64,000 nucleotides of DNA, taken from positions 69,861 to 133,860 of the IMG/VR virus record IMGVR_UViG_3300049218_000083, one strand, 5' to 3'. The position numbers and the translations under genes are program-made. Below are positions 4,103-51,716 of this stretch, piece after piece. The DNA is from a virus. The notes beneath the pieces were generated by a model. It searched no databases. It saw nothing but the letters and a program-made list of their open reading frames with translations, and had not been told where the DNA came from. The first letter of the stretch is position 1. Every line of letters starts with the position of its first letter.

Positions 4103-4590
4103 TATTCTTTACTCTTACAATTATCGAAGTGGTATCTCTTCATCACTGGACCTTTCCCTTGTTTGTCACAGTGTGGACAGCTTACCAAAGGATGTGGATG
4201 GTAATTTCCTCTGTTGCCTACACCATACTGATTTCCTTGATGGGATCGGCTAATCTTTTCATTTGCTTCCTTGGTTCTTGTCCAAGGACCTTTCTTGTTA
4301 ACGTATGGTCGACCTTTCAATTTAGCAGACATCTTTGCTCGGTATTCAGGAGTCTTCACATATGACATATCTCGATTCTTAATTCCCTCACGCAAAGCTA
4401 TCAGTCTTCCTTCTTCACCAGTAACTCGACCAGATAACATCTCCCAAGCCAATTCATCTTGCCATCTACCATGCTGCTCGAACAGCACACGATGAGCCTC
4501 AGCGTGTTGCTCTATAGTCAATTCCACAAGGTTAGATGGATCGTCGGATCCACCAGCATGCCTTGGGTTTATGTGATGTAAATGGTTCAA
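4102..4590 (-). CDS. HNH homing endonuclease-like protein
   Basis: HHINPRHAGGSDDPSNLVELTIEQHAEAH; C-terminal CPHC..RYHFDNCK. Confidence 0.8.
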   Translation of the reverse strand: MNHLHHINPRHAGGSDDPSNLVELTIEQHAEAHRVLFEQHGRWQDELAWEMLSGRVTGEEGRLIALREGIKNRDMSYVKTPEYRAKMSAKLKGRPYVNKKGPWTRTKEANEKISRSHQGNQYGVGNRGNYHPHPLVSCPHCDKQGKGPVMKRYHFDNCKSKE

Positions 4591-5000
4591 CGAAGCCTCT
4601 CAAGGAACACTTGTATCTGAATTGGAGTTTGTATGCCACCAGCTACAGAAAACACGATTGTCACCTGGTATCCGTCCAATTGCGTGGATGCCTGTACGAT
4701 GATGTTCAGGACTTCCGCGCGAGGTTCAAAGTTTTGAAGCACGTCACCGATTTCCTTGGACAACAAATTAGCTGTAACACCATCGACAAGTTCAAACAAC
4801 AGCTTGCGAACGTTGCCACCGATTTCTGGGTGGAATGGTCGTTCGTAGTGATTCGTGGACACCAGGTTAACGATGGACTGAACCACGCTGTTAACACCAG
4901 TCACTTTCAGCAAATCACCAGTGATTGGGTGTGCTTGAAAATCAATGTCAAAATCTGAATAAGTGCGTGTTTGTAGAGGTGTTGATAAATTATTTGCCAT
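4587..5000 (-). CDS. gp25: Baseplate wedge subunit gp25
   Basis: YSDFDIDF..HPITGDL..ERPFHPEIGG..FEPRAEV. Confidence 0.92.
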   Translation of the reverse strand: MANNLSTPLQTRTYSDFDIDFQAHPITGDLLKVTGVNSVVQSIVNLVSTNHYERPFHPEIGGNVRKLLFELVDGVTANLLSKEIGDVLQNFEPRAEVLNIIVQASTQLDGYQVTIVFSVAGGIQTPIQIQVFLERLR

Positions 5001-5498
5001 TTAGCAGAACCTCCCATTGTTGTCTTTGTTACTATTTAGACCTTTTGTTCTACCGAAATTCCAACCAGTTGGTAGTTGGCCATTCTTTTTCATGGTTTTA
5101 TCTGTTACACCATCAGTAATCCATCTGAATCCACCATGGTTATGATGAGCTGAACCACTCAATGGTTTTGGTGGATTGACATGAGTCCCAAGTTGTTTTC
5201 TTGTCTCGTATGCCTTTCTACCTGATTCTAATGTTGTCTTTGGTGGAATTTTCCCACCAACAGTCATGTTGTAGTTCCAAGGATGCTTTATGAATTCTTC
5301 CGTGACAATTTCAGCTTCCTTGGCATATGCCTCTTCAGCTGTTATGAAAGCTGTTATTCCATATTTCTTAACAGCTCTCTTTAGGTGTTTTCCGGAGCCA
5401 AAATATCCATCAAATTCGTATGGTTGTTCTTGTTCATGTACTCCGATGTACACTTTTCCTGTGGCAATATGAGTGGTGATGTAAACTATGTGGGGCAT
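5001..5498 (-). CDS. GIY-YIG (Seg-like) homing endonuclease, possibly internally deleted
   Basis: IVYITTHIATGKVYIGVH..GYFGSG..YNMTVGG; start re-assigned to MPHIVY. Confidence 0.75.
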   Translation of the reverse strand: MPHIVYITTHIATGKVYIGVHEQEQPYEFDGYFGSGKHLKRAVKKYGITAFITAEEAYAKEAEIVTEEFIKHPWNYNMTVGGKIPPKTTLESGRKAYETRKQLGTHVNPPKPLSGSAHHNHGGFRWITDGVTDKTMKKNGQLPTGWNFGRTKGLNSNKDNNGRFC

Positions 5499-16190: not shown

Positions 16191-17141
16191 TTACTCGTCG
16201 TCGTCGGCAAGACCATTGAACATGTTCAACATCTTGTCGTCATCGTCCTCATCACCACCGGCAGCGACTGGAGTCTCTTCCCAAGGAGGAGTCTGCTCAG
16301 CCTCGACTGGCTTTGCCTTCACCGGACCAGAGTTGACTGGCTTGCTGCCGTCCAACCCGATGACCTTGTGGAACTTCGCTTCCAACTCTTCATAGCTCTT
16401 GAACTGGTCAGGAGCCTTCAGAGCCTTCAACGAATAGGCTGAACGCCAGATCTTTTCGATCTTCTCATCGCTGTCCGCAATCGGCGTTCCCTTCGCTGGG
16501 TTTTCAGCCGTCGCCAAACCTTCGAAAGAAGAGGTATCGTAGTTGCGATATCCCTCGACCTTACGAATACGAAGACGGAAGTTGTGTCCCTTCCAGAAAT
16601 CGAACACTGGAACCTTCACCAGCGTGATATCTTCCAAAGCTGCTGCCTTGATTTCTTCTTCGGTTGGCTTGATGCAAACACGAATCTTGTCGAAAATCTT
16701 CTTGCCATAACTGTACAGGAAGATCTTGCCTTCGTTGTCTGGATTGCCTGGGTCCTTAATAACCAGAATGTTTGACGTGTAACTCAAACGACGCTTCTGC
16801 TTACGAACAATCTTCTTGTTCTCTTCGACGCCAGTCTTCCAAAGCTTGCTGTTGTACTCAGCGACTGGGTCCTTCAAACCCAAAGTCGTCAAGCTGTTTT
16901 CGATGTACCAGCCGCCAGGACCTTCAAATCCATGGCTGAAAAGCTGTACCCATGGTAGACCATCTTCACCGTCTACTTCTGGGGTGTCCAAGAAACGAAT
17001 GACTGCAGAACCGTTGCCAGCCTTATCGACAGTTGGCTTCCAGTATCGGTCATCGCCCTTGTTTTGTTTGTTGGTTTGCTCGAGAGCTTTGGTTAGCTTG
17101 TCGAGGGAAGAGTTCTTCTTCAATGCTGCGAAACTTGACAT
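16191..17141 (-). CDS. gp32: Single-stranded DNA-binding protein gp32
   Basis: DDRYWKPTVDKAGNGSAVIRFL; WYIENSLTT; GKKIFDK; acidic tail. Confidence 0.95.
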   Translation of the reverse strand: MSSFAALKKNSSLDKLTKALEQTNKQNKGDDRYWKPTVDKAGNGSAVIRFLDTPEVDGEDGLPWVQLFSHGFEGPGGWYIENSLTTLGLKDPVAEYNSKLWKTGVEENKKIVRKQKRRLSYTSNILVIKDPGNPDNEGKIFLYSYGKKIFDKIRVCIKPTEEEIKAAALEDITLVKVPVFDFWKGHNFRLRIRKVEGYRNYDTSSFEGLATAENPAKGTPIADSDEKIEKIWRSAYSLKALKAPDQFKSYEELEAKFHKVIGLDGSKPVNSGPVKAKPVEAEQTPPWEETPVAAGGDEDDDDKMLNMFNGLADDDE

Positions 17142-23320: not shown

Positions 23321-23908
23321 CATTTTATTTAGAGATTCATATTCGGTTCTATAGAACTCTCTTCTTTCAATTTTATTTAGCCCCTCATCAAGATTTGTCA
23401 AAAGTCCACCATGAGCAACCAACCCAAATATGTCAATTAACTTTGATTCATAGGATAATGCGTCAAGTTCGGAAATGTCAGTTATAAGTTTTACAACTTT
23501 TACTTCTTCACCAAAAGCCTCAATTTTTAATTTTATTTTTCTATGGGTCTCATTTCTATTTAATTCGTAACATCTATTACCCATACCCTTTCCAATGTAA
23601 AATGGCATATGTGTCATACCAAGAGTTGCGCCAAATGTAGTTTGCCCAGCTCTACCAATAGCAATTTTTTTAGTTGTATCTAAATGAGCATAAACATAAT
23701 ATTCTTTATTCGGATCTAATTCCAAATTCGAATACACAGATTTTATATCTGTATCATAAATTTTTCTACAATTATCAATTATTTGTCTAACCTTTTCGTT
23801 TTTTGATGGTTTATTTGATATTTGGGCAAGTCGACCCTTGACCTTACCGTAGTGTTCAAGTAACTTGACTGGGTCATCCCAGTCAAGTATAAATGTCTTT
23901 TCGTTCAT
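23306..23908 (-). CDS. GIY-YIG (LEM3-like) endonuclease, very AT-rich
   Basis: YYVYAHLD..PFYIGKGMGNR..ALSYESKLIDIFG..LTN; 3' end overlaps tmRNA 5' end. Confidence 0.78.
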   Translation of the reverse strand: MNEKTFILDWDDPVKLLEHYGKVKGRLAQISNKPSKNEKVRQIIDNCRKIYDTDIKSVYSNLELDPNKEYYVYAHLDTTKKIAIGRAGQTTFGATLGMTHMPFYIGKGMGNRCYELNRNETHRKIKLKIEAFGEEVKVVKLITDISELDALSYESKLIDIFGLVAHGGLLTNLDEGLNKIERREFYRTEYESLNKMNRML

Positions 23909-25221: not shown

Positions 25222-25236
25222 ATCGTTACTTCCTAT

Positions 25237-25734
25237 TTAGCCTTGCGGACCCTTCGGTGGAAGCTGACGGTGAGGAGCACCATGCTGTTCCATCGCACAA
25301 ACACCCATTCCTGCAACCTTCCGCATGATGTCCAGAGCCTTCGGCTTCGCAGTGTTGCTTGCTTCACGACTCAGGATATGCTTCGCTTCGTTGATGTAGT
25401 CTTCCATGTAAGTGAACCACTCTTCCAACGAATGCTTACCTTCCGTTTCGTATGCACGTTCGCTATCTAGCGCCGCATACACCTGGGCTCGGCTTGCTGT
25501 CATCACTGCGTTTCCACGCTTGCTGAATTGTGCTTCAGCCTGTGCCAACACTCCGGAATTGATCGAACCATAGTTCGAGAACCAGCTACCGACCACCAGT
25601 CCTTCATGACTGACTCGTACAGAAATCGTTCCGTTGTCGAGATTCTCTACCTTGACATCGGCACCAAGTCTGCCAACCTTTGCTGCGTCAAGCATGAAAG
25701 CCTTGACATCTGTATACTGTTTTGCGTTTGACAT
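25237..25734 (-). CDS. Hypothetical protein
   Basis: 165-aa ORF with helical C-terminal domain. Confidence 0.6.
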   Translation of the reverse strand: MSNAKQYTDVKAFMLDAAKVGRLGADVKVENLDNGTISVRVSHEGLVVGSWFSNYGSINSGVLAQAEAQFSKRGNAVMTASRAQVYAALDSERAYETEGKHSLEEWFTYMEDYINEAKHILSREASNTAKPKALDIMRKVAGMGVCAMEQHGAPHRQLPPKGPQG

Positions 25735-39656: not shown

Positions 39657-40190
39657 GTTGCTCAATTGAACCTTCAATGTCAAAGGGTAGATCTTGTTGA
39701 GCTGAAGGCTGGTCTTTCGAGTGTAAGGAATCTTTACCCAATGATAGTCAGACTTCAACTGTTTTTCGATCGCTTCGTATTTAGCGCACTCATCGACATA
39801 GCGAGTTTGCTCAGCTGCGTTCTTGGCATCAGCATCCGGATCTCCAGGACCATGGGTCCGAGTGATATAATCCCAAATGCCAGTTTTGCTGTACCACTGA
39901 CGCGTTGGATACTTGTGGCCCAACTTCTGCATCGTGTTGTAATCCCACTCTTTGCCAGTCACCTTGTGGACAAACACGCGGCGATACAGTTGCTGTTCAA
40001 CGCAAACAGAAATTTCCTGCGGACGATCCTTGGTTGCTTCCCGGACAATACGATATCCGAGATAGATACCCTTCGCTGCGTATGCGCTGCCTGTACACTT
40101 GGTCACAGACAAGATCGGATCGCCTGGATTGATCACGTCACCATGATCATTGGTGAACGGATTTTTCAAAATCGGTTTTAGTTTCGCCAC
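39648..40190 (-). CDS. Hypothetical protein (N-term similar to 41237-41638)
   Basis: TND.G..INPGD..VT..KGIYLG. Confidence 0.6.
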   Translation of the reverse strand: MAKLKPILKNPFTNDHGDVINPGDPILSVTKCTGSAYAAKGIYLGYRIVREATKDRPQEISVCVEQQLYRRVFVHKVTGKEWDYNTMQKLGHKYPTRQWYSKTGIWDYITRTHGPGDPDADAKNAAEQTRYVDECAKYEAIEKQLKSDYHWVKIPYTRKTSLQLNKIYPLTLKVQLSNAP

Positions 40191-40219: not shown

Positions 40220-40467
40220 CACTATCCCTATAGCCAGGTTTCTGTCTGTGTTGAGCCTATCCCAACACTCATCCATCATTCGCCTCAGGCTTTCGCCTGG
40301 TCACCAATTGTGACTGCCGCAACCCGACCTCATAGGGTGAAGCTTCCCTCGGTCTGTTAGCGTTGCTGGCCACGTTGCTAGTGCTAACGACTTTCGTCTC
40401 CTAACAGCTTCGAGCCAGTCCTGAACTTCCTCTAGGGTTTCCGCCCCAGCGATGGATCGGGATAGTG
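40220..40467 (-). ncRNA. rnpB: RNase P RNA, compact form
   Basis: P1 CACTATCCC/GGGATAGTG; CR-I GAGGAAGTTCAGG; CR-V ACAGAAACCTGGCT; P4 AG(U)UCAGG:CCUGGCU; P2 ATCCATCG/TGATGGAT; P19 GTGTTGGG/CTCAACAC. Confidence 0.88.
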
Positions 40468-45969: not shown

Positions 45970-46046
45970 TGGTAGCGAGTGGCAGGATTCGAACCTGCGT
46001 TCTTCAGCTTATGAGACTGACGAGATGGCCTCTTCTCCACACCGCA
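45970..46046 (-). tRNA. tRNA-Met(CAT), initiator-like 1:72 mismatch
   Basis: Loop CTCATAA; T1:T72; lacks the three G-C anticodon pairs. Confidence 0.8.
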
Positions 46047-47790: not shown

Positions 47791-47865
47791 TGGAGCTCCC
47801 ACTCAGAATCGAACTGAGTTCTCAGGATTACAAAACCAGCGCATCGCCACGTATGCTTTGGGAGC
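47791..47865 (-). tRNA. tRNA-Thr(TGT)
   Basis: Loop TTTGTAA. Confidence 0.85.
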
Positions 47866-48538: not shown

Positions 48539-48613
48539 TGGCGGGATGCGAGGGATTCGAACCCCCATAACTAGTTTTGGAGTCTAGAGTCCTAGCCATT
48601 GGACGAGCAACCC
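48539..48613 (-). tRNA. tRNA-Trp(CCA)
   Basis: Loop CTCCAAA; G73. Confidence 0.83.
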
Positions 48614-48942
48614 AATTTTGCTTTACCTCTTTTCTTCAGATGAACATGGCCTTTCTGAAAGAGGTTGACTTTACGAGCAGCGCGAAGGTTGCAACGCAAA
48701 TGTGAAAATGATATGTTGTTCATATCCCAGAACAACTCCGTCGGTGTCGCAGTATCTTGCCAAGCAATTTTATGCTCTAAGCTCAACTGACCGAACTTGA
48801 TTTTCTCACCACAATGAAAGCACACATCGAAACCTGCTTTCTGCGCGAGATCGAATATAACCATGTTCCATAACTTTCTAGAAGCTGCATGAAAGCTCAT
48901 ACCGAGCTGCGCAGATTTCTTCTTGAAAGTGCTGGTTCCCAT
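48592..48942 (-). CDS. HNH endonuclease in tRNA array
   Basis: CFHCGE..LSLEHKIAW..NNISFSHLRCN; overlaps tRNA-Trp 5' end. Confidence 0.75.
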   Translation of the reverse strand: MGTSTFKKKSAQLGMSFHAASRKLWNMVIFDLAQKAGFDVCFHCGEKIKFGQLSLEHKIAWQDTATPTELFWDMNNISFSHLRCNLRAARKVNLFQKGHVHLKKRGKAKLGCSSNG

Positions 48943-48960: not shown

Positions 48961-49034
48961 TGGTGGGATTGATGGGAGTTAAACCACGTGACCTCTCACC
49001 GTTAAGTGAGCGCTCTACACTGAGCTACAACCCC
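48961..49034 (-). tRNA. Degenerate tRNA-Val-like (AAC?)
   Basis: 6-nt loop TTAACG; irregular T-arm. Confidence 0.5.
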
Positions 49035-49314: not shown

Positions 49315-49390
49315 TGGCTCCGTGTGCAGGATTCGAACCTACGAATACTCCGTTAACAGCGGAGGCTATTACCACTCTAGTCAACACGGA
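49315..49390 (-). tRNA. tRNA-Asn(GTT)
   Basis: Loop CTGTTAA; T1-A72, G73. Confidence 0.9.
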
Positions 49391-49399
49391 AGAAACTTT

Positions 49400-49760
49400 C
49401 CTTTCTTTTATGCTGTGTATTTTGGTTAAGAAAACGATACAGCACTGCGTAGTGTACGCATACCAGAATCAGGTGGCGAAGGCAGCCAAGACAAGACAAA
49501 AACATTGCTGGTTTGATGGGATCCAGCGCCCAATAGCAAATGGGTCCTGCTTGCGGCAAGACCCTTAATCTTGTTCCAGCGGTTCGTGTTTACGAGTAAC
49601 CGCGTGCTGGGTCCGGTGAGAACGTCACCGAAAGTTGCGTGGGAGAATCCGGGAAGCATTCTTCCTAACAGCTAGAATTAGCTGACAGGTACTTCATGCG
49701 GTGCTTCTACCACCCCAAATCATCAGCGCGGATTTCTCCGCGAGTAGAACAATCATGAGT
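49400..49760 (-). ncRNA. ~360-nt structured ncRNA candidate at head of tRNA array
   Basis: At least 6 hairpins plus long-range pairing 49702-49714 with 49472-49484; no credible ORF. Confidence 0.6.
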
Positions 49761-49784
49761 TAGCAAGACTGTAATTACTAGAAA

Positions 49785-49818
49785 TATTTAGCTTGATGTT
49801 ACCATTCAGTGTATTTAG
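49785..49818 (-). promoter_or_regulatory. Two T4-late-like CTAAATA motifs upstream of the ncRNA/tRNA array
   Basis: tatttag at 49785-49791 and 49812-49818. Confidence 0.5.
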
Positions 49819-49824
49819 GAAATT

Positions 49825-50075
49825 CAAGTTCCTGAAATTAAACAGGATTTAGTTTCTAGGATCTTTCTACCCTTAAATGCACCAGCTTTCATGTTACACT
49901 TGAAGTGGGAGAACGCTATGTTGTTCAAAATCCCAGAACAATTCAGGATTTCTGCGCCATGGAATCTTCTGTTCACATTGGAAACACACGTCTTTTCCAG
50001 TCTGTTTTACCAGCATGAACAGTATCATCTTTCTCAGTTTAGCCTGAGCCTTCGACATAGACATGCCAAGATAGA
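49825..50075 (-). pseudogene. Degenerate HNH paralog of 48592-48942
   Basis: KLRKMILF..CFQCEQKI..ELFWD, then NNIAFSHFKCN in shifted frame; central EH motif deleted. Confidence 0.65.
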
Positions 50076-50104
50076 TTTCACATTTACGTTGTGGAACGAA
50101 TTGC

Positions 50105-50293
50105 TCAATTATCAAGAAACTCATCATCACCCAACAGGTCTTCAACTCGATGACGATTAAACCGTTCACGCTTGTAAGGCTCTCGAGATACAACCTCACC
50201 ACGCTCACGCACAGTTTTCTTCTTTCCACCGGATCGATTTTGTCGACCAGGCTTCTGATAATCGTCAGAGTTAGTGTTTCGTTGGTCCGCCAT
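50105..50293 (-). CDS. Hypothetical protein
   Basis: 62-aa ORF, start uncertain. Confidence 0.5.
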   Translation of the reverse strand: MADQRNTNSDDYQKPGRQNRSGGKKKTVRERGEVVSREPYKRERFNRHRVEDLLGDDEFLDN

Positions 50294-50495
50294 TTCTCAT
50301 CATTTCATCGGCTTCCGCCTGCATGAATCCAAGTAGAAATATTCGGAACCGCTGCTCAGACAAAGATTCAAACTGGTCAGGCTTGATCCAAGCACGCGAC
50401 TCACCAACGTAGACCGCATACATCTTTGCCGCCTCGTCAAACATGACGTAGGAGCCAACACTTTCTGCGATCTGTTTCGCAACACTCAATTCCAT
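50271..50495 (-). CDS. Hypothetical protein
   Basis: MELSVAKQIAES..; start estimated. Confidence 0.5.
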   Translation of the reverse strand: MELSVAKQIAESVGSYVMFDEAAKMYAVYVGESRAWIKPDQFESLSEQRFRIFLLGFMQAEADEMMRNGGPTKH

Positions 50496-50515
50496 GGATG
50501 TAATTATACGTGATG

Positions 50516-51028
50516 TTAGATCGTTTGCGTACCAGCTGCTGGCAACTGAGCGCAAATCATTGATTCAAGCTGGAATGCTACACTCTTTGGTGGTATCTGA
50601 TTGAACTGCTTATCCGGTGAAGCAAGTACATCGATGACGCTCATATGCTCACCAATGAAGGTTTCGCTGATACCCTTGACCGTATGCTCGACACAGTTTA
50701 TCTGGGTCTTGCTGACGATCATATACAGTTCCTTGTCCTTGTACATGTCACCTTCTGGCGCGATGAACACAGCAAGAAAAGTTGCTACCGGACCATCCGT
50801 GTCAACGCTGTCGACGTCGATTGCAACGGCATCACCCATTGAGTCGATACCGAAAACTTTGAGATGATCACCCGTTTGAGGAACGACTGCTTCAACTGCT
50901 GGTCTGACTGGACCAACAGGAGTATTTTGAACAGCTACAGGTTTTGGTGCTGCATGCTTGATGGCTAGAAATCCAAGGGCAAGTAAAGGAATCATCACAA
51001 GACCAATCCAGACACGAGTGCTCAACAT
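50516..51028 (-). CDS. Membrane-anchored/periplasmic hypothetical protein
   Basis: N-terminal TM, Pro-rich linker, beta-rich domain. Confidence 0.6.
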   Translation of the reverse strand: MLSTRVWIGLVMIPLLALGFLAIKHAAPKPVAVQNTPVGPVRPAVEAVVPQTGDHLKVFGIDSMGDAVAIDVDSVDTDGPVATFLAVFIAPEGDMYKDKELYMIVSKTQINCVEHTVKGISETFIGEHMSVIDVLASPDKQFNQIPPKSVAFQLESMICAQLPAAGTQTI

Positions 51029-51063
51029 TTCCTACTCCAAACTGAATGACCATTTGTATATAG

Positions 51064-51459
51064 TCATCGGCGATTCTTGTATCTGGCTGTTAGCTTCTTT
51101 ACATTGGCGTCGATAACCGTCTGCGGATCAATGCCGTGGCGATCACAAATGATCATCCAATAATACAACACGTCCCCAAGTTCCTTCACAAGCTTCTTCT
51201 TATTGACCTTCGTGATATCCTTCTTGTCGCGCACAGCCTTCTTCAACAGCTCCTGCACTTCACCAACCTCACCGCTGAGTCCCATCCCCATGATGTAGTC
51301 GTCACGGTCGCCGTATGCTTTCTTCTCACCATTCCAGATGGAAGCGCACCATGCTTTGTACTGAGCCATGTTCATGCTGGCTGCGTTTTGTACAAGAGGA
51401 AGTTGCCATTCGATCAATTTCTTACGAGTGGCTATGTCTGTTTTCTTTTTGCTGCTCAT
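51064..51459 (-). CDS. MazG-like NTP pyrophosphohydrolase
   Basis: GLSGEVGEVQELLKK..KELGDVLYY. Confidence 0.85.
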   Translation of the reverse strand: MSSKKKTDIATRKKLIEWQLPLVQNAASMNMAQYKAWCASIWNGEKKAYGDRDDYIMGMGLSGEVGEVQELLKKAVRDKKDITKVNKKKLVKELGDVLYYWMIICDRHGIDPQTVIDANVKKLTARYKNRR

Positions 51460-51716
51460 GATTTCTTGTGTGTCATGTAACGGTTGAGTTTCTCGATCTT
51501 TCGCTCGGCTTGCTGCATCAGTGCGTCTTCCTGGAAGAGGTCCGGATGCTCGGTGATCAACATTTTCACGACGCCCATGATGTCACCGACTTCATTCTGG
51601 AGATCGTATTCATTGTTACGGTTGTCACCGAAACGCTGAATCTTGGTTACACACTTGATGACTTCCGAGCATTCTTCAGCAAGGCAAACCAACAGTTCTT
51701 CTTTTCGGTCTTTCAC
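51456..51716 (-). CDS. MazG-like protein (second)
   Basis: LAEECSEV..KIQRFG..LQNEVGDI. Confidence 0.72.
   Translation of the reverse strand: MKDRKEELLVCLAEECSEVIKCVTKIQRFGDNRNNEYDLQNEVGDIMGVVKMLITEHPDLFQEDALMQQAERKIEKLNRYMTHKKS

Follow-up and report, generated by a model that had tools for sequence, protein, structure and literature searches.

Two structured RNA modules, conserved and separately distributed, at the head of a T4-like phage tRNA array

To our knowledge, large tRNA arrays are common in phages and their transcription and processing have barely been studied; the only array-accompanying RNAs that we know of are GOLLD, ROOL and the T4 RNAs rnaC and rnaD, which have lacked a function for years. 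In the T4 annotation the latter are two stable RNAs inside the tRNA cluster, rnaC (species 1) of 139 nt and rnaD (species 2) of 119 nt, and both are processed from the same precursor as the tRNAs. Promoter-proximal RNAs at the head of long untranslated or terminator-rich operons form another relevant group, which comprises the boxA/Nus leader of rRNA operons, lambda nut and HK022 putL/putR. GOLLD and ROOL have been described as phage RNAs 'often near tRNA islands' (PMC12286853). The leader studied here resembles GOLLD and ROOL in being phage-encoded, multi-helix, covarying, non-coding, located beside tRNA islands and without assigned function. It shares with rnaC and rnaD the lack of an assigned function, the T4-type tRNA cluster and, presumably, stability, and with the antitermination leaders its promoter-proximal place at the operon head.

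The window, the whole stretch of 64,000 nucleotides that was analysed, is part of a 166.7 kb virus record that is ~98% complete and belongs to a T4-like phage from moss metagenomes. ARAGORN identifies 35 tRNA genes on its minus strand between 43146 and 49390. Three further tRNA genes missed by ARAGORN are found by the Rfam tRNA model (45974-46045, 47794-47865 and 48964-49034, all minus), by which the array totals ~38 genes. A gene-free leader of ~390 bases lies immediately 5' of the first tRNA, and it was here that the original prediction placed one large structured RNA leading the tRNA operon. The leader region 49393-49720 on the minus strand is non-coding, has a conserved structure and a fixed position, and is modular. 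Conservation, covariation and absence of coding sequence bear the prediction out; a single indivisible RNA it is not, since there are two modules with separate distributions. The layout is as follows, with R1 and R2 the covariance models described below.

49562-49720, minus strand: module 1, the conserved multi-helix 5' core of ~157 positions (R1, 101.8 bits)
49494-49541, minus strand: linker with hairpin H6 (49507-49527, GCUGG...CCAGC), from the alignment
49393-49493, minus strand: module Z, a closed domain of ~100 nt (R2, 78.7 bits)
49315-49390, minus strand: tRNA-Asn(GUU), first tRNA of the array, abutted by module Z (ARAGORN and Rfam)

Folded as RNA on the minus strand, the 400-nt stretch 49391-49790 reaches -129.2 kcal/mol as compared to a shuffle mean of -105.2 (z = -4.3). 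The prediction was to fall if the fold were no better than shuffled controls; none of 100 shuffles equals it. The minus strand had been favoured on account of G-U pairs, which agrees both with the weaker z of -2.2 obtained for the plus strand and with the G-U pairs found in the covarying helices, including S1. The four dense stems first pointed out, 49727-49742, 49669-49684, 49614-49630 and 49542-49564, are all present in the sequence and in the folding. As RNA parts they are of unequal value: 49614-49630 (H3) and 49542-49564 (H5) are conserved, whereas 49669-49684 caps a variable arm and 49727-49742 is specific to this phage.

A blastn search in distant mode with the window element and the leader of locus L093 gave no match in 50,697 phage records, and a synteny search from a 350-aa neighbour protein gave no related loci. 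Relatives were collected by synteny, from the class II RNR gene (40 IMG/VR loci) and from the MazG-like gene (9 viral and 80 metagenome loci). Eleven members were picked by means of a nucleotide profile, a motif scan and then R1, the covariance model of module 1 (157 positions, 29 pairs); R2 is the covariance model of module Z (102 positions, 16 pairs). Loci L155, L156, L158 and L159, reached via a neighbouring small protein, were outside the R1 training set and score 67-100 bits with R1. The R1 members number 15, namely the window and 14 uncultivated T4-like phage contigs, with scores of 67-132 bits, and nothing beyond them was found at E<=1 in ~1 Mb of fetched loci. Homologue search and covariation, both proposed as checks beforehand, hence yield 14 further carriers and compensatory changes in both modules.

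Downstream of each of the 15 R1 members, and on its strand, lies a tRNA array, usually with tRNA-Asn first. Because the members share one syntenic ancestry, this constant position at the array head amounts to one observation. The conservation spans phages with RNRs only ~55-80% identical. The genome of the window phage holds one copy each of the R1 and R2 elements. Neither model has a match anywhere in the genome of Stenotrophomonas phage DLP6, a cultured relative, or in the near-complete relatives to which L033 and L037 belong, and R1 has none in the records behind L040 and L045; with these searches empty, no cultured carrier is known. A scan of IMG/VR with the motif CGAAACCGR-N10-GNAACT...CACG...CTGRAA gave four matches, of which three are true (one of them new, L135) and one is a false match in coding sequence. 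In 185,579 prokaryote genomes the same motif matched 16 times where ~8 were expected by our own estimate; all matches are apparently coding and none fits the profile. We thus see no sign of cellular copies in these genome sequences, a statement about forms that carry the scanned motif, which the window's own subtype does not.

Module 1 is built from the following elements.

49705-49713 with 49639-49647, minus strand: S1, a stem of 9 bp
49699-49701 with 49649-49651, minus strand: P2, 3 bp, which closes the junction that holds the variable arm
49653-49695, minus strand: variable arm, with hairpin 49669-49684 as its tip
49637-49638 with 49606-49607, minus strand: P3, 2 bp, which encloses H3
49612-49632, minus strand: conserved hairpin H3
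49580-49602, minus strand: bulged hairpin H4
49565-49579, minus strand: J4/5, a conserved purine-rich junction
49542-49564, minus strand: hairpin H5, the terminator-like end of module 1, 9 bp followed by AUUUGCUAUU

In the R1-fitted alignment of the 15 members, 92.4% of the cells are paired, as compared to 68.7% after shuffling of columns and 34-39% when the partners are slid. Compensatory double changes occur in 23 of the 29 pairs, and pair 115/154 appears as all four Watson-Crick types (C-G, G-C, A-U and U-A). S1 alone has compensatory changes in eight of its nine pairs. It also settles the fate of the long-range pairing of 49702-49714 with 49472-49484 that had been proposed: this shows zero compensatory changes between the window and L003, and its strand 49705-49713 is taken up by S1 through pairing with 49639-49647, so we rejected it.

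These data leave hardly any room for the reading of the leader as non-functional, be it a fold arisen by chance, the remains of tRNA genes or the coding sequence of a small protein. An ORF of 77 aa does lie inside the leader (49426-49659, minus), but its reading frame is not kept in the relatives and their leaders have no conserved ORF; neither ARAGORN nor the Rfam tRNA model finds a tRNA-like match between 49391 and 49800. Covariation far above the shuffled and slid controls, and conservation across phages as divergent as their RNRs indicate, already contradict it.

That the RNA belongs to no known family, as initially stated, agrees with a scan of all Rfam 15 models, which gives no match to the window leader at either the gathering score or E<=10; GOLLD (RF01998) and ROOL (RF03087) are included. 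Eight relatives (L003, L016, L029, L052, L055, L079, L093 and L104) are equally without a match at E<=1-10. Apart from sequence, size distinguishes the leader from GOLLD and ROOL: module 1 is much smaller and the window copy comprises ~330 nt in two modules, although the type B relatives introduced below approach them with an ORF-free leader of ~500-650 nt, by reading. The fixed promoter-proximal position is a feature of the present RNA, unlike GOLLD and ROOL. These two form homo-oligomeric cages, and the likeness drawn here is one of kind and genomic context. As for rnaC and rnaD, these are shorter and lie at the 3' end of their cluster rather than at its head; in the T4 tRNA region (L152) R1 does not exceed 5.6 bits with filters off and R2 has no match. 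Both modules are new families absent from Rfam 15, of a kind that is known, namely structured RNAs beside phage tRNA islands. We found no description of either module in the literature; new are the two families, the leader position and the cassette-like exchange with a boxA leader.

Strictly conserved unpaired junctions (ACCGCACUAG, CGAAACCGG, GNAACU, CCAGCCACG and CUGAAAACAGAAGCA) surround the multi-helix core, as is typical of catalytic or ligand-binding RNAs. This would fit a ribozyme (self-cleaving, tRNA-processing or a further RNase P-like RNA) or a ligand sensor (riboswitch or T-box-like element), as would what we take to be a faint resemblance to the T-box sequence (GGGUGGUA...ACCGC) and to CR-II of RNase P (GCCAC...ACAGAA). 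We consider such a role very improbable. The window's own subtype has lost several of the junction motifs, and the Rfam models for T-boxes, riboswitches and ribozymes have no match in the leader at E<=10. The same holds for bacterial RNase P RNA, of which the GAGGAAAGUCC / ACAGAAnCCGGCU pair, read by eye, and any P4-type pairing are absent, and a separate RNase P-like RNA is encoded elsewhere in the window:

40220-40467, minus strand: RNase P-like RNA (mini), with CR-I-like GAGGAAGUUCAGG, CR-V-like ACAGAAACCUGGCU and P1 pairing, assigned by eye

A 500-nt stretch around this candidate has no Rfam RNase P match even at E<=10. For want of Rfam support we gave up apparent likenesses of the leader to a hammerhead core, a T-box sequence, RNase P CR-II and, on the plus strand, SRP domain IV (GGCGAAGGCAGCCAAG), as well as a boxA-like reading of J4/5.

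Downstream of H5 the linker hairpin H6 is common to the window, L003, L155 and L159. It is followed by module Z, which consists of these parts.

49479-49482 (CCUU) with 49400-49403 (purine tail AAGG), minus strand: closing pair
49472-49474 with 49462-49464, minus strand: inner 3-bp hairpin ACC/GGU
49446-49460, minus strand: hairpin H7
about 49410-49444, minus strand: hairpin H8

Conserved GCC(C/U)U closes the domain with a conserved tail A(G/A)GG, and the window has a compensating U-A pair. With R2, 89.3% of the cells are paired, as compared to 74.6% for shuffles, and compensatory changes are seen in 12 of 16 pairs. Three kinds of leader can be distinguished. Nine are of the window's type and carry R1 and Z together. 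Six (L016, L029, L079, L093, L104 and L135), named type B, have R1 without Z and other conserved structure 3' of it. Type C, in two sister lineages (the group of L045, L056, L058 and L059, and L081), has Z without R1. Since either module occurs without the other, the flagged region consists of two tandem cassettes rather than one indivisible RNA.

The 3' part of type B leaders contains what by eye reads as an H-type pseudoknot, CGUGC...GUCAGUC...GCACG...GACUGAC in L093 (~5215-5270), the second stem of which covaries to CCAAUC/GAUUGG in L079 (~4875-4930). More conserved blocks lie 3' of it, in a leader that by reading is apparently structured throughout its ORF-free ~500-650 nt. In most relatives, though not in the window, an extra module is found between Z and tRNA-Asn. 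It has a canonical T-arm (GGUUCGAAUCC) and ~70 nt later a D-arm-like AGUGG... segment, and is enclosed by a 5-bp stem (e.g. GAGGG/CCCUC in L155) and acceptor-like pairing, an order that corresponds to a tRNA permuted in the anticodon loop or to a permuted tmRNA-like tRNA domain. ARAGORN is silent in seven of seven loci and Rfam in the four that were scanned (L003, L052, L055 and L081).

T-arm/D-arm-like module in relatives: L003 ~16215-16350; L052 ~2545-2700; L155 ~1325-1450; L156 ~1070-1190; L158 ~1150-1280; L159 ~1580-1700; L081 ~4380-4500

Upstream of module 1 the following elements are relevant to transcription.

49812-49818, minus strand: CTAAATA, distal late-promoter-like motif, supported by the strand bias of its copies
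49785-49791, minus strand: CTAAATA, proximal late-promoter-like motif and probable transcript source, supported by NTAAATA in relatives and a contig start at 49768
49761-49766, minus strand: TTGCTA, -35-like hexamer with no -10 following, a remnant of the sigma-70-type promoter of relatives
49727-49742, minus strand: GC hairpin CGCGGA-GAAA-UCCGCG, restricted to the window phage, 5' of the conserved RNA and at the position of the relatives' -10 box

Both CTAAATA motifs are where they had been reported, upstream of the leader. CTAAATA resembles TATAAATA, the late promoter of T4. The window has 12 copies, every one on the minus strand, as compared to 3.8 expected on both strands. Several, among copies such as 23374-23380, 25234-25240, 39778-39784 and 49785-49791, just precede RNA genes; the permuted tmRNA and the amber-suppressor tRNA each have a copy close upstream. 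The heptamer is probably the late-promoter core of this phage. Several relatives have a late-like NTAAATA 38-49 nt before the core. In eight of ten relatives a sigma-70-like, T4-early-like promoter (TTKMCT-N17-TAnnnT) stops 7-17 nt short of the R1 start, in L003, L054 and L052 as TTGCTA-N17-TAAGAT/TATAGT; in those relatives the core therefore begins at about +1. No sigma-70-like promoter was found upstream of the window leader, so that transcription there probably proceeds from the CTAAATA motifs. A contig of 312 nt from a moss metatranscriptome library (X4) is identical to 49457-49768 and starts ~10 nt past the start predicted from the proximal motif. It is a weak hint of transcription, as contigs show neither strand nor ends and the library may contain DNA. 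Over the flanking genes (49800-51500) the RNA run is without contigs, but since the DNA runs are equally patchy we draw no conclusion from uncovered parts.

Transcription would probably start at ~49778 on the minus strand, a few bases past the CTAAATA at 49785-49791, and a single transcript would comprise module 1 with H5, module Z and, directly thereafter, tRNA-Asn and the array. RNase P cleaves all pre-tRNAs at the 5' end, and a cut at the 5' end of tRNA-Asn (49390/49391) would release a leader of ~390 nt; an RNase P-like RNA of its own is encoded by the phage at 40220-40467. In some relatives H5, acting as a leaky terminator, could also yield module 1 alone. While the transcript ends are predicted, this route of co-transcription with the tRNAs and release by RNase P is well grounded. 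The freed module or modules may persist as folded RNA and act in trans, by themselves or together with a phage protein.

We tentatively favour this last possibility, by which the released RNA would be stable, compact and trans-acting, akin to GOLLD and ROOL, and give it a probability of roughly 0.4. It is favoured because of the precedent of GOLLD, ROOL, rnaC and rnaD, the size and ornateness of the type B leaders and the contig from the RNA library. What counts against it is that structured RNAs right after a promoter at an operon head are usually cis-regulatory, and that sister phages have a boxA antitermination signal at the same place. In a close rival reading, which we hold to be somewhat less probable, the leader would act in cis: folded just behind RNA polymerase, module 1, Z or both would protect elongation through the ~6-kb untranslated, hairpin-rich array from Rho and intrinsic terminators, or the leader would gate read-through at H5 by attenuation. 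The models for the former are HK022 put RNA and the boxA/Nus complex of rRNA operons. The RNA is always transcribed first and the core begins near +1 in the eight of ten relatives mentioned, yet the window transcript would start ~60 nt upstream of the core, which argues that a +1 start is inessential.

The boxA evidence can be read in two ways. The type C leaders of both sister lineages have a perfect rRNA-operon boxA (GCTCTTTAACAA) ~100 nt upstream of Z, comprising GCUCUUUAACAA, which we take to be the E. coli rrn boxA consensus.

boxA in type C leaders: L045 5637-5648; L056 6817-6828; L058 3089-3100; L059 2913-2924; L081 4084-4095

Within two mismatches GCUCUUUAACAA is absent from the window leader and from all 14 R1-bearing leaders checked, and among 16 leaders examined boxA and module 1 are mutually exclusive, as expected if one replaced the other in cis. 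Nevertheless, ~100 nt of structure lies between boxA and Z in type C, so that boxA may be an extra element and not a replacement. Other differences from the antitermination leaders are the lack of boxA in the window leader and a size that exceeds put or nut several-fold; size and elaboration count against a cis role, as the antiterminator RNAs that are known are far smaller and simpler, put being ~70 nt and boxA 12 nt.

Attenuation draws on H5, which is terminator-like in the window and textbook-like in L003 and L155. A hairpin is present at this position in every member read, but the U-tract, by reading, is clear in L003, L054 and L155, weaker in L104, L135 and L093 and absent in about half of the members, and by eye we found no alternative antiterminator pairing. 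A more specific version, which appears unlikely, would make module 1 a new kind of RNA device for reprogramming RNA polymerase where phage tRNA operons begin, a large put-like processive antiterminator, factor-independent or assisted by the small protein, that replaces the boxA/Nus signal of sister phages; if true, phage tRNA arrays would carry their own modular, swappable operon-head RNAs.

The trans-acting RNA that we favour may have a protein partner, and one candidate is encoded nearby.

50105-50293, minus strand: gene of a 62-aa protein, candidate partner of module 1 by co-occurrence
Small-protein genes in relatives: L003 15578-15757; L055 5099-5293; L135 12890-13093, and others

It is, together with ORFs of 94 and 170 aa and the MazG-like gene (51064-51459), among the nearest conserved genes upstream, all on the minus strand. 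The family measures 58-93 aa (most 58-70) and has an acidic N-terminus, a Lys/Arg-rich middle and an acidic tail. For the window protein the Atlas model is of low confidence (pLDDT 0.38), which suggests that this basic/acidic protein is probably disordered. It has no Pfam or PHROG family. T4 Trna.4 was considered as a homologue and rejected for lack of similarity.

Module 1 could thus be the RNA part of a small RNP with this disordered protein of 60-70 aa, with a role anywhere from RNA chaperoning to counter-defence; judged from sequence, this seems quite unlikely. The family is tiny, with only 16 clusters among 5.8 billion proteins, and is present in 10 of the first 11 module 1 loci; in the other fetched loci we found only a weak match of 28 residues, in the short fragment L068. 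In leaders of the window's type 64-125 nt separate the end of its gene from the core, and following the protein gave the four new RNA members L155, L156, L158 and L159. The co-occurrence is nevertheless confined to one syntenic clade and the gene lies 0.4-2.8 kb away in type B; L079 has no copy of the protein, and L160 has the protein without the RNA in the 1.2 kb downstream.

The result is two covariation-supported RNA modules with covariance models, coordinates, promoters and a candidate protein partner, exchanged as cassettes with the boxA-bearing leader of sister phages. They are a new class among the large, puzzling RNAs found beside phage tRNA genes and offer a testable handle on whether the tRNA operons of phages depend on RNAs dedicated to antitermination or processing, or export stable structured RNAs.

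The leader's upstream flank has itself been a site of insertion. A decayed remnant of an HNH homing-endonuclease gene, which relatives are without, occupies 49884-50088 (minus). It is a paralogue of an intact-looking 116-aa HNH ORF within the tRNA array (48592-48942), with 36% identity over 77 aa, and shows an 11-residue deletion over the catalytic region followed by a frameshift. The insertion site is flanked by the small-protein gene on one side and the promoter of the leader on the other.
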